21,800 nt of DNA from a virus (lineage: Duplodnaviria > Heunggongvirae > Uroviricota > Caudoviricetes): IMG/VR virus record IMGVR_UViG_3300033070_001565; one strand, given 5' to 3'. Position numbers and translations under genes: made by a program. Below the pieces are notes generated by a model. It searched no databases. It saw only the letters and a list, made by a program, of their open reading frames with translations, and was not told the origin of the DNA. This document shows, in pieces, positions 4,217 to 20,868 of this stretch (the stretch's first letter is position 1; every line of letters starts with the position of its first letter).

Positions 4217-6654
4217 TGGCAACTCTGACAAATGATCCAGCGGTAAAACCTGCTCGCAGAGCCACGCTGGGAACTCTTCTAAAGGTCGGACCTACTGCTA
4301 TTGCACGTGGCGCTGCAGAGCTATCGTCATTTGATTCTGGATACAACGTAACTTCAGACGGTGCGAAACTTAAATCAGTACTTCCAGGATTCACAGAGCT
4401 GGCTCTAAAAAGAGTCGAGGCACGTGAACTTGAGGCTGGAAATATTCTTGAATCTCTCCTGTCGTCGCCGGATACTGGCGTTACAGAGATTTCGATCACA
4501 GATTCATGGGGAAATATCAACTCAGATTTGCAGCCGTATGATGGTCCTCTCGTTCCAGGAGGGATGCTTGTACTCGCAACCACTCTTACGCTGGCAGTTG
4601 GAACTTCTCTTACACTACTTTCAAACCTTGCAGGAATTGCAACTGGACGACAGGTTGAACGTACCGGGCCGAACGGACGAGGCTACAAGGGAAAAAGCTA
4701 TAAATTTGCAGATGGTAATGGAGGACTATTTTCAACAGATAGCATCAAATCGTACATCACGGACGCACTTGGTATTCGTCCGACAACTCGCGATTATTTC
4801 GAATGCGTGAAAGCAGGTTTTGCAACTGTCGTTGGAGCAGATATATCTGGAGGTGGTCTTCTACAACAGCTCACGCAATCTTTCAAAAAATTGGCAGAGT
4901 CTCCTGGATATTACGTTGTTCTGTTTCGTACTGTCACTCGTGATGCTGTTAGACTTGCTGACGTTGTAAAATCAATGGGGTCATCGCCTCTTCAAATCGT
5001 TGATGGCGTCGCAGACGTGATAAGATTTATTAGAGGATCGAAGATCATCGCAATGATGAATGTTTTTGCAATGATCGGCGATCTCGCGCTTGCTGCAAAA
5101 GATGCAAGGGAGCGTATTGGAAGTCTAGACAACGAAGAGTATCCAATCGATGCTCCAAAAGCAGAGTTTATAAGAGCATATGCTGGAAATTCTGGTAAGA
5201 AGCTCGCATGGGCCGGCGATCGTGCAAGATCACATCTTTTGCTTCCTGAGAGAATTCTTGCAGCGCATCAAACATTCGCAAGGGATCGATCATACATGGC
5301 TGCAACGTCTCTCAAACTACAGAGAATGTATAATCCTGCAATTGATCACGACTCTCTAACACTCACAGATCAAGATATCAGCAACCGTGGCAGAATCGCG
5401 GATGATTTGAGAATTGAAATTGAAAAGCAACTCGATTCTCAATACGTTCCATTTTACTTTCATGATGTTAGAACAAACGAAATAATCTCGTTTCATGCAT
5501 TTTTGACATCGCTCACTGACGATTATTCTCCATCGTGGGATGGTACAGATCCGTATGGAAGAATCGATCAAGTAAAAATTTACAAAAGCACTGGTAGAAA
5601 AATATCTGTCTCGTTCTATGTTGTCGCAACGAACGAAGAAGATATGGATGAGATGTATCTGAAGATTAACAAACTTGTCACGATGGTGTACCCTCAGTGG
5701 TCTCGCGGAGATATTTTTGCAACTTCGGATGGCAACAATCGATTCACTCAACCCTTTACTCAGACTCCAACTGCGTCTCCGCTTATCAGAATGAGACTGG
5801 GAGATTTGATTCAGTCGAACTATTCAAAATTCGCGCTAGCGAGATTGTTTGGTGCAGGAGAAATAGGCGCACTCAAAATCAATGGAAATGAACTCACTCA
5901 ATCTCAGGTTGACGAAGTTTCAAAAGACATTCAAAGAGATATCGTTTCTCAATCTGAGCGTTTGCAATCATCTGGTGGCACAAACAGAATCGTATTTCAA
6001 ATAAGACCATCGTACGGGGGTGTGCCTATCGAATCAATGAGATCTGGAGGGATAAAACTGTCAATTCCTCTGCCGATTCCATCTGCTGGAGGAGGAATTG
6101 ACACGATATCATTTCCCGCTCACGAGCTCGAGGCTTTGAAAGTTAAGGTCATATCTGTGAGCTCAGATGATATGGCTGAAATTCAGTTTCAGATCAGAGA
6201 TTCATATTCAGGAAAGATTCCAACTCTTGAAGACAAGATTAATACGATTGCATCGAAAACGTATGTTGTGCCGATTCACTATCTTCAAGAGATATCAGCA
6301 TCTGATGGCACGCTTAATCCATCATCGAGTCCATATGATACGTCTGTGATCGAATTTTTCTCTGAAGAGAAGAACACGATTGTGAGATCTTTTAAATCGT
6401 CTGGTGGTAGAGGAATCGCTTGTACAATAGACTCGCTGAACCTTGACTGGTGGGATGGTAATAAAATCGGATGGGAGACGTATTCAATTGGAAAATGCGC
6501 TCCAAAGATGTGTCTTGTAAAAATAGCTATAACGCCGATCCACGATATTGCACCGGGAATCGATCACCGCGGATTCAATAGAGCTCCAGTGTATCCTGTT
6601 GGTTACTTTGGTCACGATTCAATCAAATCAGGAGAATTAGATGGCATTCAGTAG
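4216..6654 (+). CDS. virion structural protein (tail/baseplate-associated), function unknown
   Basis: This 812-aa ORF is start-coupled to the upstream stop and overlaps the next gene by 14 nt. The internal segment YVPFYFHDVRTNEIISFHAFLTSLTDDYSPSWDG..GRIDQVKIYKSTGRKISVSFYVVATNEEDMDEMYLKINKLVTMVYP (about nt 5443-5700) loosely resembles the VPFY...GR...P pattern of Mu gp43 (DNA-circulation N-terminal) and tube-fold baseplate proteins. That resemblance is weak and unverified. Confidence 0.75.
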   Translation: MATLTNDPAVKPARRATLGTLLKVGPTAIARGAAELSSFDSGYNVTSDGAKLKSVLPGFTELALKRVEARELEAGNILESLLSSPDTGVTEISITDSWGNINSDLQPYDGPLVPGGMLVLATTLTLAVGTSLTLLSNLAGIATGRQVERTGPNGRGYKGKSYKFADGNGGLFSTDSIKSYITDALGIRPTTRDYFECVKAGFATVVGADISGGGLLQQLTQSFKKLAESPGYYVVLFRTVTRDAVRLADVVKSMGSSPLQIVDGVADVIRFIRGSKIIAMMNVFAMIGDLALAAKDARERIGSLDNEEYPIDAPKAEFIRAYAGNSGKKLAWAGDRARSHLLLPERILAAHQTFARDRSYMAATSLKLQRMYNPAIDHDSLTLTDQDISNRGRIADDLRIEIEKQLDSQYVPFYFHDVRTNEIISFHAFLTSLTDDYSPSWDGTDPYGRIDQVKIYKSTGRKISVSFYVVATNEEDMDEMYLKINKLVTMVYPQWSRGDIFATSDGNNRFTQPFTQTPTASPLIRMRLGDLIQSNYSKFALARLFGAGEIGALKINGNELTQSQVDEVSKDIQRDIVSQSERLQSSGGTNRIVFQIRPSYGGVPIESMRSGGIKLSIPLPIPSAGGGIDTISFPAHELEALKVKVISVSSDDMAEIQFQIRDSYSGKIPTLEDKINTIASKTYVVPIHYLQEISASDGTLNPSSSPYDTSVIEFFSEEKNTIVRSFKSSGGRGIACTIDSLNLDWWDGNKIGWETYSIGKCAPKMCLVKIAITPIHDIAPGIDHRGFNRAPVYPVGYFGHDSIKSGELDGIQ

Positions 6655-6934
6655 ATACGCTAGATCAGCCAGATTGGGCCAGGGATCTTATCTCGGCACA
6701 TCGGCCGCTCAGATAACGATCAGGAGAGCAGTAGAGCAGAGCGCGGTCGATTACAGACAGTTTGTCTCGAGAGAGGGAGACCGTCTTGAGACGCTTGCAA
6801 ATCAGTTCTATGGATCAGGTGATCTCTGGTGGGTCATAGCAGCTGCCAGTGGCATTGGCTGGGGGCTACAGATGCCTCCAGGAACACTCTTGAATATCCC
6901 TGATATAGGTCAGGTGGCTCAACTTGTCGGGTGA
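6641..6934 (+). CDS. LysM-like tail protein X family protein
   Basis: SREGDRLETLANQFYGSGDLWWVIAAASGIGWGLQMPPGTLLNIPD fits the GDTLDxIAxxxYG....AN......PxGTxLxIPD pattern of P2 gpX / LysM-like baseplate proteins. It has one of the few good Shine-Dalgarno sites in the window (AGGAG at 6630-6634, 6 nt before the ATG). Confidence 0.7.
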   Translation: MAFSRYARSARLGQGSYLGTSAAQITIRRAVEQSAVDYRQFVSREGDRLETLANQFYGSGDLWWVIAAASGIGWGLQMPPGTLLNIPDIGQVAQLVG

Positions 6935-6940
6935 TCTAAT

Positions 6941-9799
6941 ATGAACAGCGTATCGCCAGTATCGAAACTCTCTGAGATCTACAGGTACATCTCTCCGAAA
7001 GATTTTGCAGGAAATCTCGCAAACTATGATGTAACTCCATCTGGTCTCGTACCGAACAAATCTGAAGAGGTTACCGGAGACATTGTACCATTCCTTCAGG
7101 GACTTGTCGTAGAAACAAGCAACAATGGTGCTGCTTCAAATGCTGATATTATCGATTCAGTCACGGCATATCTTGCCGGCGCCTCTACTGATGTTGTCAA
7201 GGAGTTTACAAAAAGATTCCTATGCATATCTGACACGCCGGTACCATTCAACTCTGACATTCAAAAACTAAAGAATTTCAAACTTTCAACTCTTATGAAC
7301 GGAAGTGGAGAGAGAGTTGAGTGCTCTACGTACATGATCGGAACTCAGAAAGTAAACATCAATCTGAGAAACACGAATGATATCATGACATTCTCTCGTG
7401 CAATACCAACGCACGAGATGTCGAGATGTGTTCCACATCTAAGGGTACGATTTCTTTATCCATCCGACTCAAGCGGTAGAAATCCAGATGGAAAGCTGCT
7501 CTCACCAGGAATATTGAAATTTCTGAGAGGCGGGGTCAGCATCTCAGACAGATCTGCCGATCTTGCAATGACAGATCCCACGCTAAGACTCAGCGCTGAC
7601 TCTGAACTCGGTCTGACGGGCGCAGCTGCAATACGAGGGTCTTCGAACGGGGGCGGAATGGACATGTTCCTCATGCCGCAGACACTACAAAATTTCGAAG
7701 AGACTGGGCTCGTCGATGGCAGGTTCAACTCTGTAATTGATCCCACACGCCCGTTCATGTCTCTTGAGGAGCTCTCTGTGAAGTGTGTGACTCAGCAAGC
7801 AGGTATGGGTCAGTACAAGACTGCCGAGCTGTCTCTCGTTCTCCACGATAGATCACGTCTACCAGATATTGCTCATCTCATCAAGCCAGATGCTTACGGG
7901 AAGACAATGCTCGATATTGAGTACGGTTGGTCTCATCCCGACGGGATCGGAAGCGATAACATCTACGGTGAGTTTATCAACAGGATCAAATCGAGAGAGA
8001 TATACATGATCAGGAATGCTGGATACGGCATTACGAACACTGGCGAGATGAAGATAACGCTTCATCTCGCAATGAAAGGCGCGACTGAGATGCTGAGATC
8101 TCGCATAAGCCAGTTCGATTACGAGAAAGATCTGAGAGTTCTAACAAATACAATTAGCGAACTCAGGAGAGCGCTCAATCTCAGTGTGCCTGGAGATCCG
8201 AGAGTAACTCAGATTCTCGATGCAGCTGAGCGTGGTGAGAGACCTGCAGATAGTGCAAATTTTCAAAAAGAACTCGATGGACTCCTCTCTGCTCTGAGAT
8301 CGGGATCTTACGCCAGAAAAGGTACTGATGGTGCGTCTGCATCGATCGCTGGGTCTGCTGCGCAAAAACTTGCTGACAAGCTGAAAGAGTTGTATCTCAA
8401 TCCGGATCCTGGAAATACAAAATCGAAACTTACGTTCAAAGAGAGCAGACAAAAAATTGCCGTAGAGACGATCAGAAAGAAATTCGTTCAGTGCGAGACA
8501 GGAATCGACCCATTTTTCCCAGATCCCGCAGATAAGGAAAAATACCCTGCTTTTGCATACAGCCTCGACACTTATAACAAGGGTACAAAAGACGATCCAA
8601 ACGGTCGAAATTCGATCGTATCTTTTGGAAAGTTGTTCTGCACTTTCGCTCTTGGTTCCATAAGAGACACACTGAAGGAGGAGATTGATGAAATACAAGT
8701 TTTCTTTTACCCATTCAGTACCGGCGCCGGCCGTGCTAGTGGGTCTCCAATCGGAATGTTTCCGATTGAAACTTCTGTTATTGACAGAATCATGCAAGAC
8801 AGGGCTCAGAAAACGATGAACGCAGACATGAGCGTTTACGATTTTTTGAATCTCGTGAATGACAAGATTTTTTCCGATCCAAGAACATTTGCATATGGAC
8901 TCTCAGACCTCTACATGCCGAGAACTGCAGATGAAAAAGAAGCACAGCTGAATACAAAAGTTGTCAAGGATTATCCTGCGCTCTCTCGTGCTCTTGATGA
9001 GAGATTGAATCAGTTTGGTGGTACATTCAAGGCTCCTGTTATCAAGATCATTCCTGAGACATTCCCGAAGCGACTGGGTCAGTATGCAGTTGATCCTAAC
9101 AGATTGATTCTACGACTTCATGTTTTCGATGTGCAAGCTGATGCTAACGATGCTGCGATGTCAGTCCTCAAGTCGCTGTCTCTTTCACCGACTGCATTTG
9201 TACCTGGAGCATCATCTCAAGATGATAGCGTAAAGCAGTTCATCGAAAATTTCAAGACCGCAACTGCAAATCTTGTAGGTTTGGGATTCAAAGATATCTC
9301 AATTAATCAGTCATCTGTAGGAAAACAGAATTTTCTTTCCGTCGACGGAAATCCTGAGCTCATCAAGGCTGCAATTACGAAGCTACTGCCTACGATATCG
9401 ATCGGAGGAAACGCATCGATCGTTACAAACATACAGCTCAGTCCGCAGCAAAATGCTCTCATATCATCTGCAAATATGAGAGCAAACGGAGGAGGGCCCG
9501 GGTTCAGGCCCAACGGGTCAGCCGCAGGTGGCTTGCCACTCAGCGTCATACCTGGAGAGATGAGTCTGTCAACGCTGGGATGTACATGGGCGACGATTGG
9601 TCAGAGAATATTTGTCGACTTGAAAACTGGAACGCAGCTCGATAATGCATACGTGTGTACAGGGATCGATCACAAAATTGGTCCTGGAAAATTCGAAACG
9701 AACTGGAAGTTCGCGTGGTACGATGCGTACCCAGCGTATACTTCATTCGTAAGATCAATGCAACAAGTAAACAGATTGCTTGAAAAAGCTTCCGCGTGA
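6941..9799 (+). CDS. large virion structural protein, possible baseplate hub/tail-tip protein (function unverified)
   Basis: This 952-aa uninterrupted ORF lies directly after the gpX-like gene. In P2/Mu-type tails a gpD/hub-type protein sits in that position. I could not confirm any enzymatic motif by eye. Confidence 0.7.
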   Translation: MNSVSPVSKLSEIYRYISPKDFAGNLANYDVTPSGLVPNKSEEVTGDIVPFLQGLVVETSNNGAASNADIIDSVTAYLAGASTDVVKEFTKRFLCISDTPVPFNSDIQKLKNFKLSTLMNGSGERVECSTYMIGTQKVNINLRNTNDIMTFSRAIPTHEMSRCVPHLRVRFLYPSDSSGRNPDGKLLSPGILKFLRGGVSISDRSADLAMTDPTLRLSADSELGLTGAAAIRGSSNGGGMDMFLMPQTLQNFEETGLVDGRFNSVIDPTRPFMSLEELSVKCVTQQAGMGQYKTAELSLVLHDRSRLPDIAHLIKPDAYGKTMLDIEYGWSHPDGIGSDNIYGEFINRIKSREIYMIRNAGYGITNTGEMKITLHLAMKGATEMLRSRISQFDYEKDLRVLTNTISELRRALNLSVPGDPRVTQILDAAERGERPADSANFQKELDGLLSALRSGSYARKGTDGASASIAGSAAQKLADKLKELYLNPDPGNTKSKLTFKESRQKIAVETIRKKFVQCETGIDPFFPDPADKEKYPAFAYSLDTYNKGTKDDPNGRNSIVSFGKLFCTFALGSIRDTLKEEIDEIQVFFYPFSTGAGRASGSPIGMFPIETSVIDRIMQDRAQKTMNADMSVYDFLNLVNDKIFSDPRTFAYGLSDLYMPRTADEKEAQLNTKVVKDYPALSRALDERLNQFGGTFKAPVIKIIPETFPKRLGQYAVDPNRLILRLHVFDVQADANDAAMSVLKSLSLSPTAFVPGASSQDDSVKQFIENFKTATANLVGLGFKDISINQSSVGKQNFLSVDGNPELIKAAITKLLPTISIGGNASIVTNIQLSPQQNALISSANMRANGGGPGFRPNGSAAGGLPLSVIPGEMSLSTLGCTWATIGQRIFVDLKTGTQLDNAYVCTGIDHKIGPGKFETNWKFAWYDAYPAYTSFVRSMQQVNRLLEKASA

Positions 9800-9844: not shown

Positions 9845-10948
9845 GTGAATCAATTCTTCATTGACTCAGATCTAACAAGCAAGATATCAAATATCAAAAT
9901 TCAAATTGATACTGAGCATGGGAAATTTAAGAGAGTACAAAATCCATCTGGTTATGCATACACACGTACGGATGCTCATGTACGTGCAAGCTTGCAAGCC
10001 CTGGCATGGTCTCATGGGGTACATGTCGATGTGACGTCACCTGTACCTGAGACTGTACTTGCCGGTCTTGGAGTATTTGATGTTTGTCCTGCACACGTGA
10101 TCAAACCATGGCTAGATTCAGTTCTGAAGCAAGTGAGAGAATATTCTGAGCTATCAAATGAGTATTGCGAAAATGTGTGGAAGCGACACATGCATTTTGC
10201 AAGCAAATTTGCTCAGCTACCCGGTCGACCATCTCCGGTTTACGATTTTATCTCATCAAAGACCGGTCGACCATCTGTGATATCCGGGCACAATTACACG
10301 AATGAGACGTGGTCATCTCGAGTACATGCAATTTCGAACAATGGATGCCTGTATTACGTCGATATGAGCGAGTTCGAGGCAAGAGTACTCGGCGCAAGAG
10401 TTGGAATCGATTTTGGGGGATCTGATGCGTATATGACTCTAGCTGAGATGGTTGGTATACCTGGACAGAGAGATGATGCCAAGCTGACAGTCCTGGCATC
10501 AGTTTTCGGAGCGGGAAAGAATTTCACTGAGTCGAAGAACCTGTCACTCAGTACTCTCGGTAGCGTAAGGAGCATCTTCAAAATCGATGAGCTAGCTCAC
10601 TCGTCCGGACCAATCGTGACTCCACACGGCAGAAAAATTGCAAAACCAGAAGCACGGCTCGTACCATCTTGGTACACTCAAGCAACGGCAGTAGACATTG
10701 CGTGGCAGAGATTTGAAAACACAGCAGAATTGTTTCCATCAAAATTCGATACGATCGCAATCGTGCATGATGCATGCATTATCGATGCTCCTGTCGGAGC
10801 AGAAAAGAGACTCACGAAGTATTTTGCTCAGACTCTCATCGATCCTGTTACTGGCGTTAGTTTCCCAGTCAAAATTAAAAAGTTGAGTGATGTAAAGAAT
10901 GTCAAGCGAGAAGTACAATCTGAACAAGATGGTACAATCTCTCAGTGA
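9845..10948 (+). CDS. minimal family-A (Pol I-like) DNA polymerase domain protein, no exonuclease domain
   Basis: GTG start; the next in-frame Met is at residue 115. TGRPSVISGHNYTN corresponds to TGRLSSxxPNLQNIP. Motif A is YYVDMSEFEARVLGA versus DYSQIELRxxAH (D173 at 10361-10363, E178 conserved). Motif B is RDDAKLTVLASVFGAG versus RRxAKxxNFGxxYG (K213 at 10481). GRKI..(N)..TQATAVDIAWQRF corresponds to GRRR...QGTAADIxKxAM. Motif C is IAIVHDACIID versus QVHDE (H308/D309 at 10766-10771). Confidence 0.75.
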   Translation: MNQFFIDSDLTSKISNIKIQIDTEHGKFKRVQNPSGYAYTRTDAHVRASLQALAWSHGVHVDVTSPVPETVLAGLGVFDVCPAHVIKPWLDSVLKQVREYSELSNEYCENVWKRHMHFASKFAQLPGRPSPVYDFISSKTGRPSVISGHNYTNETWSSRVHAISNNGCLYYVDMSEFEARVLGARVGIDFGGSDAYMTLAEMVGIPGQRDDAKLTVLASVFGAGKNFTESKNLSLSTLGSVRSIFKIDELAHSSGPIVTPHGRKIAKPEARLVPSWYTQATAVDIAWQRFENTAELFPSKFDTIAIVHDACIIDAPVGAEKRLTKYFAQTLIDPVTGVSFPVKIKKLSDVKNVKREVQSEQDGTISQ

Positions 10949-11585: not shown

Positions 11586-11749
11586 AGCTTGAGGACCTCA
11601 TCAGAGAGATCATTATACAAGAGTTTGTAGCTCTTGCAGGTGGTGCGGTATCAGGTTTCATTGCTCCAGTAGAACAAACACAAAGCAAAAAATCGTCAGT
11701 AAAACCAAAAAAGAAAAAAGAAGATAAAAGCAATGGCAATCGACATTAA
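11576..11749 (+). CDS. possible small protein (57 aa), hydrophobic N-half with a Lys-rich tail
   Basis: This ORF is below the track's length cut-off. My translation is MQVKLEDLIREIIIQEFVALAGGAVSGFIAPVEQTQSKKSSVKPKKKKEDKSNGNRH. It fills the otherwise non-coding 147-nt gap, overlapping the HD gene end by 10 nt and the SSB start by 17 nt. Alternatively the A-rich stretch is simply the SSB leader. Confidence 0.3.
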   Translation: MQVKLEDLIREIIIQEFVALAGGAVSGFIAPVEQTQSKKSSVKPKKKKEDKSNGNRH

Positions 11750-12569
11750 CGCTCTCCGCGCTCGTCTGGCTGGTATCGAAAACGCTAACAAGAGGAAGTC
11801 GAACATCAAGTTCTTCCGTCCTGAGGTTGGTGAGTACACTCTCCGTGTTATTCCCTGGCTCGATACTCCCGATAACGATCCTTTCAAGAATCTCAAGCTT
11901 CACTACCTCGTGAAGCCACGCCTTGTCTCGCCGGCGTCTTTTGGTAAGACGGATCTCATCATCGAGCTAGCCAAGGAAATCAAAGCAGATCGTTCTGACC
12001 CCGATGGCTGGAAGAAAGCCCGTAAGCTCGAGCCGGCTGATACTTGGTATGCTGCTGTTCTCGATCGTGCAAAGGAGGCCGATGGTCTACATCTCTGGTC
12101 CTTTAACATCTACATCTGGAAACGTCTCGTGTCGTTCTTCCTCGAAGAGGACACACAGGAGTGGCTTGATCCCAAGAATGGCTTCGATCTGAAGCTGAAG
12201 GTCGCTCCTGGCAAGAAGATGTACAACGGTAAGCCTGTGAACGAGACAACGATCGATCTCGCCAGGAAGCCCTCTCCCGCCCTGAAGGATCCTGCCGCGC
12301 TGAAGAAACTTGTTGAGTCAATGACTCAGTTCACGGCTGACTTCTCTGCAGACAATCAGCCTGCAACAGACGCAGAGCTGCAGCATGCTCTCGATACGTT
12401 TTTGAGTGAGCAAGATGCAGCTGCTGGTCTGCCTGCGAAGGACAAGACTGATGAGGGTACGAGCTCCCGGGGTCCTGCAAAAGCTGCTCCTTCGGGTGGT
12501 TCGAATACGTCTTCTGCAGTTGATGCACTAGACAGCGCCGTCGATGATCTCTTGAACTTATTGGCTTGA
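11733..12569 (+). CDS. T4 gp32-like single-stranded DNA-binding protein
   Basis: The matches to T4 gp32 are collinear. LRVIPW corresponds to IRFLP. TWYAAVLD corresponds to SYWANILV. HLWSFNIYIWKRL corresponds to FKYRFGKKIWDKI. GFDLKLKV..GKKMYNG corresponds to GANFVLKVKQVSGFSNY. The low-complexity Ser/Ala linker and the acidic C-terminus SAVDDLLNLLA correspond to DLDDLLNDL. Codon choice is strongly C-ending and AAG-rich, as expected for a highly expressed gene. Confidence 0.75.
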   Translation: MAIDINALRARLAGIENANKRKSNIKFFRPEVGEYTLRVIPWLDTPDNDPFKNLKLHYLVKPRLVSPASFGKTDLIIELAKEIKADRSDPDGWKKARKLEPADTWYAAVLDRAKEADGLHLWSFNIYIWKRLVSFFLEEDTQEWLDPKNGFDLKLKVAPGKKMYNGKPVNETTIDLARKPSPALKDPAALKKLVESMTQFTADFSADNQPATDAELQHALDTFLSEQDAAAGLPAKDKTDEGTSSRGPAKAAPSGGSNTSSAVDALDSAVDDLLNLLA

Positions 12570-12587: not shown

Positions 12588-13799
12588 ATGGCAGCCAAGA
12601 AAAAAGAATTCATCCCGGTTCTTAACGAAGCGGTCGACGGTATTGATGCCGCGTCGACCGCTGAGTTCGTTAAGCAGATTAACCGTGAGATGGGAGACCG
12701 TGTAGCATTCAATCTCGCGGAGGGAGAGGCACCAACAATCATCAAGCGTTGGATTCCGACCGGTTCCACTCTCATTGATTACATGATCGCGAATCGTAAA
12801 GGCGGAGGTCTACCAGAGGGAAGAATCATCGAACTCTCGGGCATGCCCTCAACTGGCAAGTCTCACATTGCGTACGAGATTGCAAAGAACGTGCAGAAAA
12901 TGGGCGGTCTCGTCGTGTACATCGACACTGAGAATGCGACTCAGATCGATAAACTCCATGAGATGGGTCTCGATGTCAGGAACCGTTTTATCTACTGCGA
13001 TACGCACTGCACGGAGGAGGTCTTCGAACTCATTGAGAAGACGATCACGAAAGCAAAGCAAGTCATTGGGAAGAAGAACGTTCCATTTCTTGTCATTTGG
13101 GACTCTGTCGCTTCGACATCACCAAAAGCAGAACTAGAGGGAAATTACGATAAGGACACAATCGGTCTCCAGGCGAGGGTTATCAGTAAATGCATGAGGA
13201 AAATTACGGGAGTACTCGGTGAGAATAATGTAACCCTTCTGTGTCTCAACCAACTCAGGACGAAGATTGGTGAGATGTTCGGAGATCCCATGTCATCTCC
13301 TGGAGGAAACGCTATTCCATTCCACTCAAGTGTGAGATTGAGACTTTCTTCTGGTCAGCCAGTCAAGAACAAGAAGGGCGAAATCATCGGGATCAAGGTG
13401 ATTGTCACTCTCAAGAAGAACAAGGTTGCATATCCTCACCGCAAGTGCGAATTCGAGATTCATTTCGGACGCGGAATCTATGAATCAGAAGCACTATTCG
13501 ATGTGCTCAGAGAGTGGTGCATTGAGCACACAGGAGCAAAGATCGGAGATGCGTACGTTTCGGTCAGCGGTGATGGTGCATGGAAAGAGCTCATTGTCGC
13601 AACAAAAGATGGAGAAGTACTTGTTGAAAAGAAGTTCTATAAACACGAGTTCAGCGAGGTAATGTCTGATCCGAAATACCTCCCCTACGTATCAGTACTC
13701 ATTGATGCTGCGCTTGTAATAAAGCCAGACCTAGGTACACAAACAAATAATGGAAGCCCATCAGAAGGTGAATCAGACACCACAGCAGCCCCAAACTAA
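12588..13799 (+). CDS. recA: RecA-family recombinase
   Basis: LPEGRIIELSGMPSTGKSHIAYEIA contains the Walker A motif. VVYIDTENA and FLVIWDSVASTSPKAELEG contain the Walker B motif. GLQARVISKCMRKITGVLGENNVTLLCLNQLRTKIGEMFGDPMSSPGGNAIPFHSSVRLRL is nearly collinear with the bacterial RecA core (GLQARLMSQALRKLTG...[32 protein letters not shown]). Confidence 0.9.
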   Translation: MAAKKKEFIPVLNEAVDGIDAASTAEFVKQINREMGDRVAFNLAEGEAPTIIKRWIPTGSTLIDYMIANRKGGGLPEGRIIELSGMPSTGKSHIAYEIAKNVQKMGGLVVYIDTENATQIDKLHEMGLDVRNRFIYCDTHCTEEVFELIEKTITKAKQVIGKKNVPFLVIWDSVASTSPKAELEGNYDKDTIGLQARVISKCMRKITGVLGENNVTLLCLNQLRTKIGEMFGDPMSSPGGNAIPFHSSVRLRLSSGQPVKNKKGEIIGIKVIVTLKKNKVAYPHRKCEFEIHFGRGIYESEALFDVLREWCIEHTGAKIGDAYVSVSGDGAWKELIVATKDGEVLVEKKFYKHEFSEVMSDPKYLPYVSVLIDAALVIKPDLGTQTNNGSPSEGESDTTAAPN

Positions 13800-14211
13800 C
13801 GTCAGGATTCAGCTCATAGACAGTGGCTGTGCTCTCGAAAAGGGAACACAGCAATCTAGCGGTTGGGATCTCAAATCTCGTGTTGACATTACGATTCCGA
13901 ACGGTTCAACTTGTAGAATTCCTGTTGGAATCTCTCTTGGACTCCCAAATTTTTGGGAGGCCCAAATCAGATCTCGCTCATCCTCGCGATCGAAAAGAAT
14001 GATTGTTGAGTGGGGAACGATCGATGCAGATTATAGGGGAGAGGTAGAAGTACAGGTAACCGCAGACAAGGGTCCCGTGAAGATAGAAAAATATCAGAGG
14101 ATCGCACAGCTTGTTTTTGTACCCGTTCCACCTGTAAATTTGCAGTATACAACTGACGTGATTGGTGAAGTTACAGAAAGAATTGGCGGTTTCGGTTCAA
14201 CTGGCTCGTAA
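13750..14211 (+). CDS. dut: trimeric dUTP pyrophosphatase (dUTPase)
   Basis: All five dUTPase motifs are present: SGWDLKS, IRSRSS, GTIDADYRGEVEV, YQRIAQLVF and ERIGGFGSTGS. The only ATG gives a 50-nt overlap with the recombinase gene. Confidence 0.9.
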   Translation: MEAHQKVNQTPQQPQTNVRIQLIDSGCALEKGTQQSSGWDLKSRVDITIPNGSTCRIPVGISLGLPNFWEAQIRSRSSSRSKRMIVEWGTIDADYRGEVEVQVTADKGPVKIEKYQRIAQLVFVPVPPVNLQYTTDVIGEVTERIGGFGSTGS

Positions 14212-14244
14212 GCCACTAATTTTATTCCACATTGCAGTTTGATC

Positions 14245-14277
14245 CCCATGCAGTGACTCTCGATAGTTGTGCATGGG
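14245..14277 (+). promoter_or_regulatory. hairpin in the dut-FEN intergenic region
   Basis: CCCATGCA (14245-14252) pairs with TGCATGGG (14270-14277) across a 17-nt loop. No T-run follows, so a terminator role is doubtful. Confidence 0.25.
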
Positions 14278-14298
14278 ATGGTAAAGATGAAGTGCACT

Positions 14299-14307
14299 TG
14301 TTATAAA
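14299..14307 (+). promoter_or_regulatory. candidate extended -10 promoter element (TGTTATAAA)
   Basis: TG-n-TATAAA matches the bacterial extended -10 consensus TGnTATAAT. It sits 8 nt upstream of the ATG at 14315, which would imply a near-leaderless transcript. No convincing -35 element is present. This is speculative. Confidence 0.25.
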
Positions 14308-14314
14308 ATTAACC

Positions 14315-15268
14315 ATGTCAGAACCCTCTCCTAGGCCGATTCTTCTCGTTGACGGTCTCAATCTGTTCATAAGATGCTGGTGCGCGTATCCTGCTGTCTC
14401 AACTCATGGTGGGCAGCTGGGAGGCGTTGTCGGGTTTCTGAAAACTCTCAACAGGCTCGTGTCTGATAATTCTCCACAGAGAGTCATCATCGCATGGGAG
14501 GCTGGCGGATCTCTGCGTCGCAGAGGAATAGACCCCAATTACAAGAACCAGCGCCGACCTGAGAAGCTCAACAGATTTTATGGAGATGATATCCCTGAGA
14601 CACACGAGAATTGGCAGCACCAGCTCACAAGTCTTGTGAAGATATCAGAGTGTCTCCCGGTCACTCAGGTTTATGTCGAGGACTGTGAGGGAGATGACGT
14701 AATATCGTACTGTGCAACATCGATCAGAGGAGTCAACAAGATCATTGTCTCATCAGACAAAGATTTTTATCAGCTCCTTGACTCAGAAACAAAACAGTAC
14801 TCTCCTCACAAAAAGTGTTTCATAACTCAGGATGACGTTCTGAGAGACTTTTCGATTCATCCTTGCAACTTTGCAATCGCGAAGGCAATCTGCGGAGATC
14901 CTGGAGATAACGTTTCAGGAGTCCCACGAGTGGGATTCAAGAGTCTCGCAAAACATTTTGACATTCTTAAATCGAGCACGCCACTCATTCTTCCCGACGT
15001 TGAAACTTGGGCTGCTGCTCATAGAGATGAGTCTGCAATCATCAAGAGAGTGTGGGAAAACTGGGATATTGTCCAGAAGAATTGGAAACTTGTCTTTCTT
15101 GGAATTGGCGCTCTATCTCCACAGCAGATAAAGAGGATTGATCAATGTTTGGGAGTGGTACCACAACCAAGTCTGGTCAAGTACTTCGGACTGCTAAAAG
15201 AGATCGGAACATCTGACATTGGAGTACATTCCACGTTCCAAACGCTGAAGCAAATAGGTGATAATTGA
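14315..15268 (+). CDS. 5'-3' exonuclease / flap endonuclease (Pol I N-terminal / T5 D15 / T4 RNase H family)
   Basis: ILLVDGLNLFIR shows the PIN-like acidic site. IIVSSDKDFYQLL is also present. AKAICGDPGDNVSGVPRVGFKSLAKHF fits the H3TH pattern GDxSDNIPGVxGIGxKTA. Confidence 0.85.
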   Translation: MSEPSPRPILLVDGLNLFIRCWCAYPAVSTHGGQLGGVVGFLKTLNRLVSDNSPQRVIIAWEAGGSLRRRGIDPNYKNQRRPEKLNRFYGDDIPETHENWQHQLTSLVKISECLPVTQVYVEDCEGDDVISYCATSIRGVNKIIVSSDKDFYQLLDSETKQYSPHKKCFITQDDVLRDFSIHPCNFAIAKAICGDPGDNVSGVPRVGFKSLAKHFDILKSSTPLILPDVETWAAAHRDESAIIKRVWENWDIVQKNWKLVFLGIGALSPQQIKRIDQCLGVVPQPSLVKYFGLLKEIGTSDIGVHSTFQTLKQIGDN

Positions 15269-16029
15269 CTGAGAATTTTGGTAAGTACGGTATCGATTTC
15301 CAAGAAAAGATTATGCAAGCTCTGCTCGTTGATCGAGCATGGGCTCAGCAGATGATGGAGGTGTTCAAACCAGATTTCTTTGAGAGAAAGCATCTCGTTT
15401 ACCTTTCGAACAGATACTTCGAGTACTGGAAGCAATACAAAGTCTTTCCGACATTTGAACTTCTCGTTGTCATCATCAAAGATGAGCTGAAGTCTGGTAT
15501 TGACGCTGAATTGAGAATTCAGATTGTCGATTATCTCAAGCGCATTAAAGATAATCCCAACTCTGAAGATCTTTCCTACGTGAAGGATAAGTCTCTCGAT
15601 TTCTGTAAGCGTCAGGGATTGAAGACTGCAATGCTCGAGGCAATCGAGCTGATCGAAGATCAGCGTTACGAGCCCGTTGTCGATATCATCAAGAAGGCTG
15701 TCTCTGCGGGTACATGCGAGTCTCTGGGACACGATTTCTTCGAAGACAGAGATGCTCGCTACGTTGAAGATTACCGTGAGTGCGTTCCAACCGGCATTCC
15801 GGAACTCGATTCAAAGGGTGTTTTCAATGGTGGATTGGGCAAGGGTGAACTCGGAATTGTCATTGGTGGCACCGGCGCAGGAAAATGCACTCAGAAGAAC
15901 GCCACTGTAAACATCAGGTATACAGCGATTGATATCGATGGTACGATTTACAATCCATGGGATATCGTATCAACGAGAAGAGGAAAGATTCTTGCAAAAG
16001 ATGTCACGTCAAGAGACGAACTCATCTGA
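15265..16029 (+). CDS. T4 gp41/DnaB-type replicative helicase, N-terminal fragment ending inside Walker A, fused to an intein N-segment
   Basis: The TTG start overlaps the FEN stop (aaTTGAct), with an alternative ATG at 15313. GHDFFEDRDARYVEDY resembles T4 gp41 GHDWMDDYEARW. The helicase sequence ends GELGIVIGGTGAGK (AAA at 15883-15885). It is followed by Cys (TGC 15886-15888), then TQKNATVNIRYTAIDIDGTIYNPWDIV... and TGA at 16027-16029. Confidence 0.85.
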   Translation: MTENFGKYGIDFQEKIMQALLVDRAWAQQMMEVFKPDFFERKHLVYLSNRYFEYWKQYKVFPTFELLVVIIKDELKSGIDAELRIQIVDYLKRIKDNPNSEDLSYVKDKSLDFCKRQGLKTAMLEAIELIEDQRYEPVVDIIKKAVSAGTCESLGHDFFEDRDARYVEDYRECVPTGIPELDSKGVFNGGLGKGELGIVIGGTGAGKCTQKNATVNIRYTAIDIDGTIYNPWDIVSTRRGKILAKDVTSRDELI

Positions 16030-17546
16030 ACAGATTCCGGAGTGTCAGATCTGCGGAATGACTTCACGCAATCTGATTACTCACATTACACGTACTCACA
16101 AGATCTCATGCAGTGAGTACGCTTCACAATATCCAGGTTCAAAAATTTTTCTTGTTAGGAAAAAAGAAAAGAAGCTTTCGCAGAGGCAGCAGCATGTAAT
16201 TGAACTCAAATCGCTTGGTACGAGTCCGCTTACGTGCAGACTGTGTGGATTCGAGTCTTACATGTCACTCACCTCGCACATTACGAAAATTCATAAATTT
16301 TCGATGGCTGAGTACAGAAAAAAGTTTCCAGAAGATGTTATTCAACGAGGCTGTCCGACAACAAATGAAAAGAACAGAATCGCACAAAAAGAACGTTTGA
16401 AAAATCCTGATTTGCGTGAAAAATGGGACAAGCAAAGATTTCTTCCTCCTACCATGAAGGAATTTTGGATAAAAAAGGGTCTGTCTGAGACAGACGCGGA
16501 AATAAAAGCGCGTGAAATGCGCGATAGAATATCAAAAATTCCTGTTAGCGCTTCAACACGATCAAAACTGTCAGAAAAATCGCGTGGAATTAAAAATCCA
16601 ATGTCGATTGAATCCATTGCGGCTCGTCATCATGTTACGCCCGATGAAGCGAGCGCATTCACTCCGTGTTATCGTCGCAGTGGAAGTTTGCATCCCATGT
16701 ACGGAAAACATCATACTGAAGAAAGTCTACAGAAAATTGCAAACGCAGATCATCTAAAACGTCCAAAATGGTCGTCGAAGGGTGAAAAAGAACTAGCGAA
16801 TTTTTGCAATTCTCTAGGCGTTACGTATGAAAACGTAAAAATTGGAAGATATAACGTAGATGTTCTATTCGCTGAAAAGAAATTGATCGTTGAGTACTTT
16901 GGAGATCTATGGCATATGTCTCCTAGGCGGTTCGAAAAAGATCAGTACCATTACTTGACACGAAAAACTGCATGTCAAGTATGGGAAAGAGATCACAAAA
17001 AGATGGAGAATTTTGTATCAATAGGATACAAAATTCTCGTAATCTGGGAATCAGATTGGAAAAATGATAGAGTTTCTTGCGAAGAAAAGATTACCGATGC
17101 CTACAATCAAGCACGTTGAAATTACTCGTACGGTTAGTCTCGAAGATCTTTTTGCTGAATTGGGATGTTCTGAGAAAGATGCACCTAACACTGAAGACGG
17201 TGACACGCTCATCAAATGCGATTATCCGATTGAAGTTGAATCTTCGAACGGCTATCAATTCATCAGTGCCGTGAGATGGACAAAACATGAACCGGTAATC
17301 AAACTAATCGTGAAATCCGAGATCGATGAAAAAAGTGTATCTCTCGGTTGCTCTCCTGAGCATCGTGTCATGACAAAACGCGGGTGGAAATATGTAAAAA
17401 ATCTTTTCGAAGATGATTACGTGTACACAAAGGACGAATGGATGAGAGTTGAGTCTTTGAAGGGACTCGATGAACTGGAACGTCTCTGTGATATGCAAGT
17501 TGATATTACTCACTGCTACTACACAAACGGGATCCTATCTCACAAC
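15886..17546 (+). mobile_element. composite selfish element: P-loop mini-intein interrupted by a free-standing homing endonuclease gene
   Basis: The element begins at intein Cys1 (15886) and ends at the terminal ...GILSHN (AAC 17544-17546), followed by the +1 Ser (TCG 17547). Block B is SLGCSPEHRVMT (His at 17361-17363). Blocks F/G are DMQVDITHCYYTNGILSHN. Removing 15910-17117 (1208 nt) leaves 453 nt, a 151-codon mini-intein. Confidence 0.8.
15929..17119 (+). CDS. free-standing homing endonuclease: two C2H2-like zinc fingers, NUMOD3-like modules and a C-terminal Vsr-like (PD-(D/E)xK) nuclease
   Basis: Frame 2 is open from the TAA at 15908-15910 to the TGA at 17117-17119. Candidate starts are TTG 15929, ATG 15938 and ATG 16001. 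The fingers are CQICGMTSRNLITHITRTH (about 16043-16099) and CRLCGFESYMSLTSHITKIH (about 16235-16294). NUMOD3-like modules include SGSLHPMYGKHHTEESLQKI and SEKSRGIKNPM. The nuclease region GEKELANFCNSLGVTYENVKIGRYNVDVLFAEKKLIVEYFGDLWH...VWERDHKK...GYKILVIWESDW is collinear with Vsr/DUF559-type endonucleases. Confidence 0.8.
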   Translation: MISMVRFTIHGISYQREEERFLQKMSRQETNSSEQIPECQICGMTSRNLITHITRTHKISCSEYASQYPGSKIFLVRKKEKKLSQRQQHVIELKSLGTSPLTCRLCGFESYMSLTSHITKIHKFSMAEYRKKFPEDVIQRGCPTTNEKNRIAQKERLKNPDLREKWDKQRFLPPTMKEFWIKKGLSETDAEIKAREMRDRISKIPVSASTRSKLSEKSRGIKNPMSIESIAARHHVTPDEASAFTPCYRRSGSLHPMYGKHHTEESLQKIANADHLKRPKWSSKGEKELANFCNSLGVTYENVKIGRYNVDVLFAEKKLIVEYFGDLWHMSPRRFEKDQYHYLTRKTACQVWERDHKKMENFVSIGYKILVIWESDWKNDRVSCEEKITDAYNQAR

Positions 17547-18404
17547 TCGCATCTTCTTGTTAACCTCGGTGCAAATGCAATCAAGGCAGGTCTCAATGTT
17601 CTTCACTACACATTCGAGCTCTCAGAGCACCAAGTATCTCGCAGATACGATGCAAACATCTGCGAGATCAATGCTGACGATCTTTCTGAGAAGAAAGCAG
17701 ATGTCTTTGCTCACTACGATGCTGGCACGAAGTACGGAAAGCTGAGAGTAAAGTACAAGCCAACCGGCACAGCAACGATTCTCACAATCAGAGCTCACGT
17801 AGAGGCGCTAGCTCTCCGTGGATTTGTACCTGATCTCATCATTATCGACTATGCAGATATCATGCGTTCGACGAGACAGTTCGACAGTCTCAGGCATGAG
17901 CTCAAGCAAGTCTATGAGGATCTCAGAGGGTACTCTGGTGAACTTGGCGTGCCCATCTGGACTGCTTCCCAATCGAATAAAGAGGGCGTCAACTCTGACT
18001 TCATCGATGAAACGAACATGTCTGAGGGTTACGCAAAGGCGTTTGTCGCTGACATTATCGTTACAATCTCAAGGAAGCCAGTTGAACGTCACTCCGGTCT
18101 GGGAAGGCTATACGTTGCCAAATCACGCGCAGGTAGAGATGGTCAGCTTTATCCCATCAAAATTGATACTGCGCAGTCTAGATTCGTAATCCTCGGCGAG
18201 GTACAGTCCCCATCTCAGGTGGCGACAGAGGATGACAAGAGTTTGAAAGCTTCCATTCGAGAAAAATGGAACAAGGTAAAGAAGGACGCTGAGTTGGCTC
18301 TCGGGCCAAATCTCAATGAAACCGTGGCTCAGCAACCGGCAGTGCAACAGCAATTAGGAAAAAGAAATGGAAAATACGATCTACACATACGCACAAGTGT
18401 ATGA
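17064..18404 (+). CDS. intein C-portion fused to the gp41/DnaB-type helicase C-terminal fragment (RecA-like ATPase core)
   Basis: ATG at 17064 or 17097, both inside the endonuclease gene's 3' end. Intein sequence runs to SHN, and the extein starts at 17547 with SHLLVNLGANAIKAGLNVLHYTFELS. Further matches to T4 gp41 are RRYDANICEINADDL (RIDANMLDVSLDDI), LRVKYKPTGTA (LIVKQYPTGGA), LIIIDYADIM (IIIVDYLGI, Walker B), IWTASQSNK (LWTAAQ), MSEGYAKAFVADIIVTI and VAKSRAGRDG (KSRYGD). Confidence 0.85.
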   Translation: MIEFLAKKRLPMPTIKHVEITRTVSLEDLFAELGCSEKDAPNTEDGDTLIKCDYPIEVESSNGYQFISAVRWTKHEPVIKLIVKSEIDEKSVSLGCSPEHRVMTKRGWKYVKNLFEDDYVYTKDEWMRVESLKGLDELERLCDMQVDITHCYYTNGILSHNSHLLVNLGANAIKAGLNVLHYTFELSEHQVSRRYDANICEINADDLSEKKADVFAHYDAGTKYGKLRVKYKPTGTATILTIRAHVEALALRGFVPDLIIIDYADIMRSTRQFDSLRHELKQVYEDLRGYSGELGVPIWTASQSNKEGVNSDFIDETNMSEGYAKAFVADIIVTISRKPVERHSGLGRLYVAKSRAGRDGQLYPIKIDTAQSRFVILGEVQSPSQVATEDDKSLKASIREKWNKVKKDAELALGPNLNETVAQQPAVQQQLGKRNGKYDLHIRTSV

Positions 18405-20868
18405 GAATGCATTGGCATACTACGGAAACGATCTTGCTGCAGATGCATATACATCGAAGTACGCTCTCAGAAATGTAGAAGGTGAGCTCATCGAGAGCGG
18501 TCCACTTGCCTCGTACATGCGTCAGGCAAGGGAGCTCGCAAGGATTGAGTCGAAATATCCGAAGTCCGCCTCTCTCGATGAGATCTATAAGGCTTTTATC
18601 GCCGGAGAGATCTCAATGCAGGGATCTCCATTCTCCGGTATTGGAAACGATCAACAGTATCAGTCTCTTTCAAATTGCTTCGTTATTGCCGGTCCAGAGG
18701 ACTCCTACGGGGGTATTTTCAGGGCCGACGAACAGCAGGCGCAGATCATGAAGCGTCGTGGAGGGGTTGGTCACGATCTTTCTGGCCTCCGCCCAAGGGG
18801 CTTTTTGACAACGAACGCAGCAAGGTCATCAGATGGTGTTACTCTGTTCATGCAGAGATTTTCGAACACAACGAGAGAGGTCGCGCAAGAGGGTCGAAGA
18901 GGCGCACTCATGATGACTGTGTCAGTACATCATCCCGATGTTGCTGAATTCATTACGATCAAACAAGATCGTAAGAAGGTCACAGGCGCAAACGTCTCAG
19001 TGAGAATTACTGACGAGTTCATGCAAGCTGTCATTTGCGATGGTTGTTATGAGCAGCGCTGGCCCGTTGAGGACACGGAACCAAAATTCAAACGTCTTGT
19101 GAGGGCTCGCGAGATTTGGGATCTCATTATCTCATCTGCACACAAATGCGCGGAACCTGGCGTTCTGTTCTGGGACACAATCATCAGGAACTCGCCGGCA
19201 GACGTGTATCCTGGCTTTAGAACTCGTTCGACGAATCCTTGCTCAGAACTTCCTCTATCTGTTGGAGACAGCTGCCGTCTTGCAATCACGAACAGTTTTG
19301 CATTCGTGAAAAACGCGTTCACAGACTCTGCTGAGTTTGACTGGGATCGTTTCAGGTCGGCTGCGGCTCTAACCCAGAGACTCATGGACGATCTCGTTGA
19401 TCTTGAAATCGAATCTGTCGATAGGATCATCGGTAAGGTTGAGTCAGATCCAGAGCCACTCAGTGTCAAAGAGAGAGAGCTTGCTCTATGGAAGGTTATC
19501 CGTCAGTCTGCACGTGATGGCCGTCGTACAGGGGCTGGTCTTACTGGAGTTGGTGATACAGTGGCTGCTCTGGGCCTGAGATATGGATCAGATGAGTCAA
19601 TCAAATTCATTGATGAGCTATACCGTGTCCTTTGTGTTGAGTCATACAGTGAATCAGTGAGGATGGCATCCCAGCGTGGATCATTCCCTGCTTGGAACGC
19701 CGAAACAGACTCGAAGTCAACTCACGTTAGGAAGATGCTTGAACAGATGACTGAAGAACTGAGAGACCTGTACGGTCAGTATGGCAGGAGGAACATCGCC
19801 TGCAATACAACTGCTCCCGTTGGCACAATCTCTCTGCTTCTTGGCACTACGTCAGGGATTGAGCCTGCATTCATGCTCTCTTACAAGCGTCGCAGAAAGG
19901 TGCAAGCTGGCGATCCGAATGTTAGGGTCGACTTCGTCGACGAGACGGGAGACTCATGGCAAGAGTATGTCGTCTATCACCCTGGATTTGAACTGTGGAT
20001 GTCCGCTTCAGGTAAGACAGAGGTGTCAGATTCCCCATATGCTGGTGCAACTGCTAATGAGATCGATTGGAAGAAATCGATCGAGCTACAGGCGGCTGCT
20101 CAGAAGTGGATTGATCATGCTATCTCGAGAACTGTCAACCTGCCAGCAGGAACTCCAGTAGAAGTTGTTGACGAACTCTACAGAACTGCATGGGCAAGCG
20201 GGTGCAAGGGATGCACAATCTACGTTGATGGATCACGTTCTGGCGTGCTCATCAGCACAGAGACTCCAAATCCGTGCTCATCTGGTCGTCCTGATGAACT
20301 TACTCACGTGCAAGCTACGAAGCGACCAGAGAAACTGCCATGCGTTCTTGGAAAGGTGAGAGTTTCAGTTCTCAGAGACGAGAGTACGAAGCGATCAGCA
20401 GAAACATGGTGCGTGCTTGTTAGCACTCTCGGTGGAAAACCCTATGAGGTCTTTGCAGGACTGGCAAAGGACTTCAGGGTTGGTGATTCGCACACAGATC
20501 TCAAGATCAGAAAAGTCAAATTGAAGACGACTGCCGGCGCCAGGTACGAGCTCATTGGAGATGGGAAGGTTCTCGTACGTGATATCACTGCAAAATTTGA
20601 CGACCCAACAGGGGGCTCATTCACACGCGTTGTTTCTCTATCTCTGAGACACGGTGTGCCCGTTCAATTCGTCGTTGAACAGCTCATGAAGGATCGCGAT
20701 AGCGATATGTTCTCTCTTGCAAAGGCGATTGCAAGAACTCTGAAGCAATTCATTCCTGATGGTACGGAATCAACTGAGAAGAAATGTCAAGAGTGCGGAT
20801 CTGACAAGCTCATCTATCAAGAGGGCTGTGTTAGCTGTACTCAGTGCTCATTCTCAAAGTGCGGTTAA
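18367..20868 (+). CDS. nrdJ: class II (adenosylcobalamin-dependent) ribonucleotide reductase
   Basis: The active-site finger is STNPCSELPL (19231-19248 = TNPCSE). ISRTVNLP is present. The C-terminal region has RPEKLPCVLGKV...GKPYEVFAG...SLSLRHGVP..VVEQL and the terminal zinc-ribbon CQECG...CVSCTQC. At 833 aa the gene has no room for an intein. The start overlaps the helicase gene by 38 nt, with AGGA 9 nt upstream. Confidence 0.9.
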   Translation: MENTIYTYAQVYENALAYYGNDLAADAYTSKYALRNVEGELIESGPLASYMRQARELARIESKYPKSASLDEIYKAFIAGEISMQGSPFSGIGNDQQYQSLSNCFVIAGPEDSYGGIFRADEQQAQIMKRRGGVGHDLSGLRPRGFLTTNAARSSDGVTLFMQRFSNTTREVAQEGRRGALMMTVSVHHPDVAEFITIKQDRKKVTGANVSVRITDEFMQAVICDGCYEQRWPVEDTEPKFKRLVRAREIWDLIISSAHKCAEPGVLFWDTIIRNSPADVYPGFRTRSTNPCSELPLSVGDSCRLAITNSFAFVKNAFTDSAEFDWDRFRSAAALTQRLMDDLVDLEIESVDRIIGKVESDPEPLSVKERELALWKVIRQSARDGRRTGAGLTGVGDTVAALGLRYGSDESIKFIDELYRVLCVESYSESVRMASQRGSFPAWNAETDSKSTHVRKMLEQMTEELRDLYGQYGRRNIACNTTAPVGTISLLLGTTSGIEPAFMLSYKRRRKVQAGDPNVRVDFVDETGDSWQEYVVYHPGFELWMSASGKTEVSDSPYAGATANEIDWKKSIELQAAAQKWIDHAISRTVNLPAGTPVEVVDELYRTAWASGCKGCTIYVDGSRSGVLISTETPNPCSSGRPDELTHVQATKRPEKLPCVLGKVRVSVLRDESTKRSAETWCVLVSTLGGKPYEVFAGLAKDFRVGDSHTDLKIRKVKLKTTAGARYELIGDGKVLVRDITAKFDDPTGGSFTRVVSLSLRHGVPVQFVVEQLMKDRDSDMFSLAKAIARTLKQFIPDGTESTEKKCQECGSDKLIYQEGCVSCTQCSFSKCG

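Follow-up and report, generated by a model that had tools for sequence, protein, structure and literature searches.

The 21,800-nt stretch of DNA analyzed here (the window; IMG/VR record IMGVR_UViG_3300033070_001565) derives from a member of the Caudoviricetes and carries a DnaB-like replicative helicase gene that is interrupted at its P-loop by an intein, itself divided by a homing endonuclease gene. Three consecutive, overlapping open reading frames (ORFs) are involved, all on the plus strand. ORF1 (15265-16029, frame 1) specifies 254 amino acid residues, while the middle ORF (15929-17119, frame 2) and ORF3 (17064-18404, frame 3) specify 396 and 446 residues, respectively, as mechanical ORFs. 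An earlier annotation made from the letters of the window (the sequence-only reading) gave the same frames and coordinates, and these stand; the mechanical starts at TTG 15929 and ATG 17064 do not, since homologues favor ATG 16001 and ATG 17097.

The helicase portion of ORF1 (N-extein, 15265..15885) comprises the N-terminal 207 residues and ends, as reported earlier, with GIVIGGTGAGK; the next codon, at 15886, specifies the Cys with which the N-terminal intein fragment (IntN, 15886..16029) begins. IntN is 47 residues long, CTQKNATVNIRY being followed by a 35-residue extension that ends in RDELI and by a TGA at 16027-16029. The homing endonuclease gene (16001..17119, approximately 372 residues) lies in the +1 frame relative to ORF1 and runs into the C-terminal intein fragment (IntC, 17097..17546; 150 residues), which starts with MPTIKHVEITRTVSLEDLF and contains the rest of block A together with blocks B (CSPEH), F (LCDMQVDITHCYY), and G (GILSHN). 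The sequence-only reading had located SLGCSPEH and then DMQVDITHCYYTNGILSHN|SHLLV in ORF3, where both are indeed present. The C-extein (17547..18404) starts with Ser+1, which is the Ser of the P-loop, and supplies the C-terminal 285 residues of the helicase (DnaB_C) and the stop codon. IntN, the endonuclease gene, and IntC together constitute an insert of 1661 nt (15886..17546).

Profile comparison places the two ends of the locus in a single protein. PHROG 19, the DnaB-like replicative helicase family, matches ORF1 over profile positions 159-366 and ORF3 over positions 369-601; since these intervals are adjacent, the two ORFs carry neighboring halves of one protein. The Pfam domain DnaB_C is found in the C-extein (8.2e-11), and the joined exteins, 492 residues in length, match uninterrupted phage helicases in one continuous alignment, which bears out the proposal that joining would yield one helicase with an intact P-loop. 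The best protein-level relative of the joined exteins is that of Microcystis phage Mel-JY01 (36% identity over residues 1-449); at the DNA level no GenBank phage matched the locus, such relatives being recognizable at the protein level only. The N-extein starts at a TTG codon that overlaps the stop of the upstream 5′-3′ exonuclease gene by 4 nt, and the helicase of an uninterrupted relative, L081, has an identical TTG start context. The ratio of nonsynonymous to synonymous substitution rates (dN/dS) against L081 is 0.018 for the N-extein, 0.032 for the C-extein, and 0.032 for the adjacent exonuclease gene; the figures are rough, as dS is close to saturation. Such low ratios indicate strong purifying selection on both parts of the helicase.

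Across 15265-18404, five contigs from five samples do not differ from the window by a single nucleotide. They come from Logan (SRR23702539 and SRR32380197) and JGI (3300045313, 3300033066, and 3300045318), and thus from two assembly pipelines; agreement among five independent assemblies rules out an assembly error, which the sequence-only reading had named as a possible source of the frame changes. That reading had also called for a search for uninterrupted alleles, and one was found in L081, a syntenic relative on a 255.8-kb contig with approximately 77% nucleotide identity to the window. Its helicase (P0002) reads GGTGAGK-SHFLV without interruption and is 93.5% identical to that of the window at the amino acid level. 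Collinearity between the two stops exactly at 15885|17547 (blastn break: window 15884/17543, L081 8620/8618), which indicates that the 1661-nt cassette, missing from L081, is a clean insertion; the DNA of L081 at the empty helicase site reads ...GGCACGGGCGCCGGCAAG|TCACATTTTCTTGTG... A scan of the locus with Rfam revealed neither an intron nor any other RNA family, and repair of the break at the RNA level by a self-splicing intron was rejected on this account.

Intein fragments and the position of the split

Single-sequence Pfam analysis of ORF3 returned, for the intein part, only a sub-threshold match to the C-terminal splicing motif, Intein_splicing (24 bits versus a cut-off of 35.8). The HINT assignment of the N-terminal portion of ORF3 comes instead from a profile built from its relatives, which when compared to PDB matches solved inteins only: gp41-1 (3.5e-10), VidaL (5e-8), and NrdJ-1 (1e-7), followed by DnaX, RecA, RadA, and DnaB inteins. 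The alignments span block B to block G, and block B of the window (CSPEH) aligns to CSEEH of the gp41-1 intein. Joined IntN and IntC were modeled with AlphaFold2 from a 51-row alignment, a single-sequence run with a predicted local distance difference test score (pLDDT) of 33 being set aside. The resulting model has a pLDDT of 95.9 and a predicted template modeling score of 0.88, with a sole dip in confidence, to 78, at residues 41-50, which span the split. All 50 matches listed by Foldseek against PDB are inteins or other HINT/intein-like domains, the highest template modeling (TM) score among them being that of the VidaL intein (0.81; root-mean-square deviation 3.1). The two fragments together are thus predicted to adopt the HINT fold.

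The residues needed for splicing are in place. Cys1 stands immediately after GAGK and is kept without exception in the 14 split loci and the 21 N-fragment proteins examined, and the block B His is present in every aligned relative. The strict block B motif pattern is found in 80 of 99 C-fragments. At the C-terminal junction the window reads GILSHN|SHLL, and Ser+1 follows in 99/99 relatives having LSHN. On these residues the intein is assigned to the class 1 type with Cys1 as the predicted nucleophile, and its two fragments would be expected to trans-splice, giving a helicase of 492 residues.

Block B sits in the C-fragment. The sequence-only reading had put it in ORF3 without noting what this implies, namely an atypical split near the N-terminus of the intein. 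A canonical split falls between blocks B and F and leaves an IntN of approximately 100 and an IntC of approximately 35-50 residues, sizes that are not those of the window. The length of IntN is nearly invariant: it measures 47 residues in all but one of 14 split loci and 47-48 in every one of 21 N-fragment proteins, hence 47-48 in 34/35 relatives overall. Contiguous relatives help to place the break. In four of them (P0010, P0026, P0052, and P0082) IntN is fused to IntC with no residues between, and two others (P0080 and P0120), which do not have some 35-45 of these residues, read C...IRY-turn-...LGxLF, an ordinary block A; from the latter it follows that the split falls between the first strand and the remainder of block A. 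The AlphaFold2 secondary structure has a strand at residues 7-17, the split at 47|48, a second strand at 51-61, and a helix at 62-68. We infer that the intein is split after its first β-strand and before its first helix and block B, as at the S1 site defined for VidaL and PolB16 (PMC13014065). Sequence comparison further locates the split within a conserved insertion of approximately 45 residues built from both fragments, 35 from IntN and about eight from the start of IntC. This insertion is β-rich and confidently modeled, and it may serve as a docking module for the fragments. Natural atypical splits have been reported with an IntN of 15-35 residues (PMC13014065); that of the window, at 47, is longer than these very short S1-type fragments.

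The homing endonuclease gene and its junctions

The sequence-only reading described the middle ORF as a nuclease with DNA-binding modules in another frame, and the profile matches agree with it. Pfam recognizes NUMOD3 (33.9 bits versus a cut-off of 20.4, at approximately 16679-16741) and ROS_MUCR (27.1 versus 25.4 bits); two Ros/MucR-like zinc fingers lie at approximately 16040-16330, and a Vsr-like/EDxHD nuclease domain at approximately 16780-17116. The ORF also matches PHROG homing endonuclease families. Single-sequence Pfam nuclease matches remained sub-threshold, and phmmer against PDB sequences produced only a weak Ros zinc-finger match. A profile of the nuclease domain constructed from 11 orthologues matched Vsr of E. 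coli (1cw0; 1.2e-8) and I-Bth0305I (3r3p; 1.2e-4). Asp, Glu, His, and Asp are conserved among the orthologues within NVD, IVEYFGDLWH, and WERD, the Glu occupying the position of Vsr Phe62 that was singled out by Dassa et al. in 2009 (PMC2677866). The product is best described as a putative free-standing Vsr-like/EDxHD homing endonuclease, which would cut intein-less helicase alleles and spread the cassette by homing.

Comparison of the window with L082, L084, and L086 reveals 100% identity between two strain variants of this phage over window positions 14414-18795, a 4.4-kb tract centered on the endonuclease gene. It is flanked by 12 differences in 14067-14413 and by approximately 8% divergence from 18796 on. 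Such a tract fits recent recombination or co-conversion around the endonuclease gene, of which it is not proof. Together with the presence of the cassette in the window and its absence from L081, it lends the proposed homing indirect support only.

In relatives the endonuclease gene starts 13-28 nt upstream of the IntN stop, the equivalent in the window being ATG 16001, and C-fragments begin with M[LP]xI, equivalent to ATG 17097 (MPTIKH); the alternative ATG 17064 would lengthen IntC by 11 residues. The overlap between the end of the endonuclease gene and ORF3 amounts to 23 nt if ORF3 starts at ATG 17097 and to 56 nt if it starts at ATG 17064; in relatives it is 20-29 nt. Most relatives possess a Shine-Dalgarno-like AGGA or GAGG 7-9 nt upstream of the IntC ATG, and both motif and ATG fall within those codons of the endonuclease gene that specify a conserved RIKDAF. 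Since gene ends and starts overlap at both junctions, the three genes are probably translationally coupled. An ATG conserved at -91 in the endonuclease frame was considered as a universal start and rejected, as two relatives (L008 and L011) have stops 3′ of it; this ATG arises incidentally from the [DN]G codons conserved in IntN. Exactly 1067 nt separate the IntN stop and the IntC ATG in the window (16029-17097) as well as in L001 (4966-6034) and L002 (4933-6001), despite endonucleases that are merely 36% or so identical to that of the window.

Allele states, known systems, and alternative explanations

The survey of relatives covered 80 IMG/VR loci and, as protein clusters, the 120 best-scoring relatives of ORF3. 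The three-ORF layout with +1/+1 frame offsets is found in 13 of the 80 loci, with an amino acid identity of approximately 50% for helicase and intein and 35-40% for the endonuclease; about 60 of the 80 are uninterrupted. Of the ORF3 relatives, 106/120 are C-fragment ORFs beginning with an intein part, and six relatives carry a contiguous intein, four with the insertion and two without, as described above. Two loci (L007 and L016) are split but have no endonuclease gene: a stop, a spacer of 60-200 nt, and a separate ATG lie between the halves, which means that these alleles can only function in trans. L007 retains the 3′-end of the endonuclease gene (WK.D...RIKD, at approximately 3061-3125) with its Shine-Dalgarno sequence and ATG, and L016 an open 5′ piece of it (2082-2465), remnants from which it follows that the gene was deleted there. 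In L010 (4759-5738) the endonuclease gene is broken across two frames, and these three loci appear to be stages of endonuclease decay. The relatives thus cover empty, contiguous, and endonuclease-less split states.

The sequence-only reading likened this layout to the fractured genes first described in 2009 by Dassa et al. (PMC2677866), and the likeness is upheld. Their loci (gp41-1 to gp41-9, NrdJ-1, IMPDH-1, and TerL) have the same one-strand gene order, likewise with a gp41/DnaB-like phage helicase as host and a Vsr-like endonuclease with NUMOD3. The overlap of endonuclease gene and IntC in the window (23-56 nt) lies inside the range of 6-69 nt in 15 of their loci, and gp41-7, like L007 and L016 here, is a split allele without an endonuclease gene. 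Their split parts are 88-105 (N) and 33-54 (C) residues long, compared to 47 and 150 in the window; gp41-1 and gp41-8, which belong to the full-length pairs, were modeled on the DnaE split intein and so are canonically split, the terminase locus alone in that survey being split atypically. In gp41-1 to gp41-7 the gene is broken at the equivalent of residue 356 of P-SSM2 gp41, and not, as in the window, in the P-loop. Whereas their loci often have a non-coding 5′ spacer of 27-51 nt, the endonuclease gene of the window overlaps the IntN ORF, and neither their 5′ hairpin nor a late-promoter motif (TATAAATA) was seen at its start in the window sequence. These differences from known fractured genes (a 47-residue IntN with extension, overlapping ORFs, and no 5′ hairpin or promoter element) are modest.

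Parallels for the intein itself are VidaL (6vgv), PolB16 OarG (8cpo), and AceL/GOS TerL, which share a split N-terminal to block B and, like the window, combine a short IntN with a long IntC. VidaL is only 17% identical to the window intein in sequence, and solved inteins do not have the β-rich insertion, the TM score normalized to the query being approximately 0.6. The VidaL inteins take their name from T4-like helicase and UvsX hosts. With regard to the insertion point, DnaB P-loop site b has Ser as its +1 nucleophile, for instance in DnaBi1 of M. smegmatis (PMC6195587). DnaBi1 and the window intein share this point (Walker A Lys|Ser, the P-loop Ser as +1), but the former is a contiguous class 3 mini-intein of a cellular DnaB, and the latter a split intein of class 1 type in a phage helicase, accompanied by an endonuclease gene. 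The endonuclease in turn shares with I-Bth0305I (3r3p; PMC3239194) a Vsr-like core, the D/E/H/D residues, and N-terminal DNA-binding modules. Unlike I-Bth0305I, which is encoded in a recA group I intron, it is located between intein halves and has two Ros/MucR-like zinc fingers beyond NUMOD3. No prior description of this helicase-intein family was found in the literature examined, a comparison that extended neither to the supplementary sequences of Dassa et al. nor to the VidaL source papers.

Taken together, we consider it very probable that the helicase gene of this large, uncultured tailed phage is a fractured gene, in which a class 1 P-loop intein has been split by a Vsr-like/EDxHD endonuclease gene and functions by trans-splicing. 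The endonuclease gene would have divided the intein into two separately translated pieces, one polypeptide consisting of the helicase N-half and IntN, and the other of IntC and the helicase C-half. The fragments would associate, rebuild the HINT fold, and splice in trans by means of Cys1, the block B His, the terminal His-Asn, and Ser+1 to yield the 492-residue helicase with its Walker A motif restored (GAGK-SHLL). Cleavage of intein-less alleles by the endonuclease would allow the whole cassette to home.

Several observations weigh against this explanation or parts of it. The low dN/dS values in part reflect history before the break, and any role of the insertion is read solely from AlphaFold2 secondary structure. 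The block B Thr position is occupied by Ser in the window and by Ala in some relatives. As to expression, ATG 17097 of the window has only a degraded Shine-Dalgarno sequence in front of it (AAAAGAT versus AAAGGAT), and there is no convincing ribosome-binding site upstream of ATG 16001, leaving expression levels and the true starts uncertain; with its own signal weakened, ORF3 may rely for translation on coupling to the endonuclease gene. The region around the endonuclease start (15960-16070) has no exceptional fold (z = -0.66).

Fragmented enzymes can assemble without splicing, as is documented for NrdA of Aeromonas phage Aeh1, split by mobE (PMC3045599), and Dassa et al. describe an intein-free SbcD-like locus (PMC2677866). 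A non-covalent complex of helicase halves, held together by the intein fragments, is nonetheless very improbable: Cys1, the block B His, the terminal His-Asn, and Ser+1 are kept across relatives that have diverged by approximately 50%, although mere association does not need them, and without splicing some 197 intein residues would be left between the Walker A Lys and Ser. In RadA, an intein at the P-loop reportedly blocks ATPase activity (PMC6195587). We rate as very unlikely that the gene is a decaying pseudogene hit by a selfish element in a phage that uses another helicase. The weak ribosome-binding sites before the endonuclease gene and ORF3, and the broken endonuclease of L010, which indicates that parts of the cassette do decay, would suit this view; dN/dS values of 0.018 and 0.032 for the helicase halves do not, nor does the preservation of both ORFs in intact form in 13 diverged loci, and of the C-fragment in more than 100 protein clusters, with all helicase and intein motifs kept. 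No second DnaB-like gene was seen within the 21.8-kb window.

Two programmed +1 frameshifts could in principle join the three ORFs into one long polypeptide, a cis-splicing maxi-intein that contains the endonuclease as a domain. The offsets are +1/+1 in every endonuclease-bearing locus, and in most of them the endonuclease frame is open for 90-180 nt 5′ of the IntN stop. Overlapping genes, though, accept indels in multiples of three only, so that fixed offsets are expected in any case, and in L008 and L011 the open overlap is just 32 nt. The stop, spacer, and separate ATG of L007 and L016, the conserved Shine-Dalgarno sequence and ATG before IntC in relatives, and the failure to identify a slippery or recoding motif, or any Rfam match, make such frameshifting extremely unlikely. 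Nothing in this metagenomic record was found to favor sequencing or assembly errors in a continuous gene, and against them stand the five identical assemblies, the layout shared by 13 diverged loci, and the nature of the middle ORF, a complete conserved endonuclease rather than a shifted copy of the helicase; we give this explanation practically no credence.

A broader reading, to which we are inclined only tentatively and with rather more doubt than conviction, holds that the locus stands for a large family of naturally split helicase inteins, undescribed in the literature examined, with a β-subdomain as docking module, four coexisting allele states, and possibly ongoing homing. The four states observed are the empty site, the contiguous mini-intein (insertion present or absent), and the split intein that either is accompanied by the endonuclease gene or retains only remnants of it. 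If correct, the family would make the gene-breaking model of Dassa et al. and the origin of split-intein fragment affinity directly testable. An essential replication enzyme would require two polypeptides to meet and splice, which would tie the supply of helicase to a selfish element. In protein ligation, naturally split inteins are important tools, of which the types with a short N-fragment are both rare and in demand; the family contributes numerous diverged natural variants, every one accompanied by matching contiguous and empty alleles. It could be of use in protein engineering and in testing how an intein is broken by a free-standing endonuclease gene and how such a gene subsequently decays.

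Other features of the window and its relatives

A perfect 14-bp inverted repeat (hairpin), GAGAATTTTGTATC-AATAG-GATACAAAATTCTC, is found at 17006..17038 (plus strand) within the terminal part of the endonuclease gene and 58 nt before the IntC start at ATG 17097. The repeat is lineage-specific, without conservation in the 13 related loci; stems of no more than 6-7 bp occur at a comparable offset in L004 and L006.

Inteins also occur elsewhere in the relatives. In L070/L071 (1442-3891) the helicase is intact and the UvsX/RecA gene is fractured instead: its N-part ends with ...QRMKIG followed by CVSPETKIIFGKLE*, an IntN of 14 residues, after which come a Vsr-like endonuclease gene (2175-2960), IntC ending in NNLLSHN|T, and the RecA C-part. 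It represents an S1-type split that lacks the extension. In the C-fragment ORFs P0098 and P0100, the C-domain of the helicase harbors a further mini-intein, contiguous and located at WTA|C...N|SQSNKEG, and hence some helicases in this group carry two inteins. The class II ribonucleotide reductase of L081 (9441-13382) contains an HNH-containing intein of 484 residues at STNP|C, whereas NrdJ of the window (18367-20868) is intein-free at the equivalent site, approximately 19240; with an intein in NrdJ and none in its helicase, L081 illustrates that close relatives differ in the replication gene invaded.

Upstream of the helicase, an SSB-like ORF (11733-12569) and a UvsX-like ORF (12588-13799) occupy one frame with a single TGA (12567-12569) between them. 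L081 has His at this codon and a single SSB/UvsX ORF of 683 residues. The TGA could be a nonsense polymorphism or a readthrough site, or else the two genes could be fused in L081. Four large ORFs upstream of the replication module (55-3999, 4216-6654, 6941-9799, and 9845-10948; 1314, 812, 952, and 367 residues) have no Pfam or PHROG match. A small ORF among them (6641-6934) weakly resembles a baseplate wedge subunit, for which reason they may be structural or tail genes.

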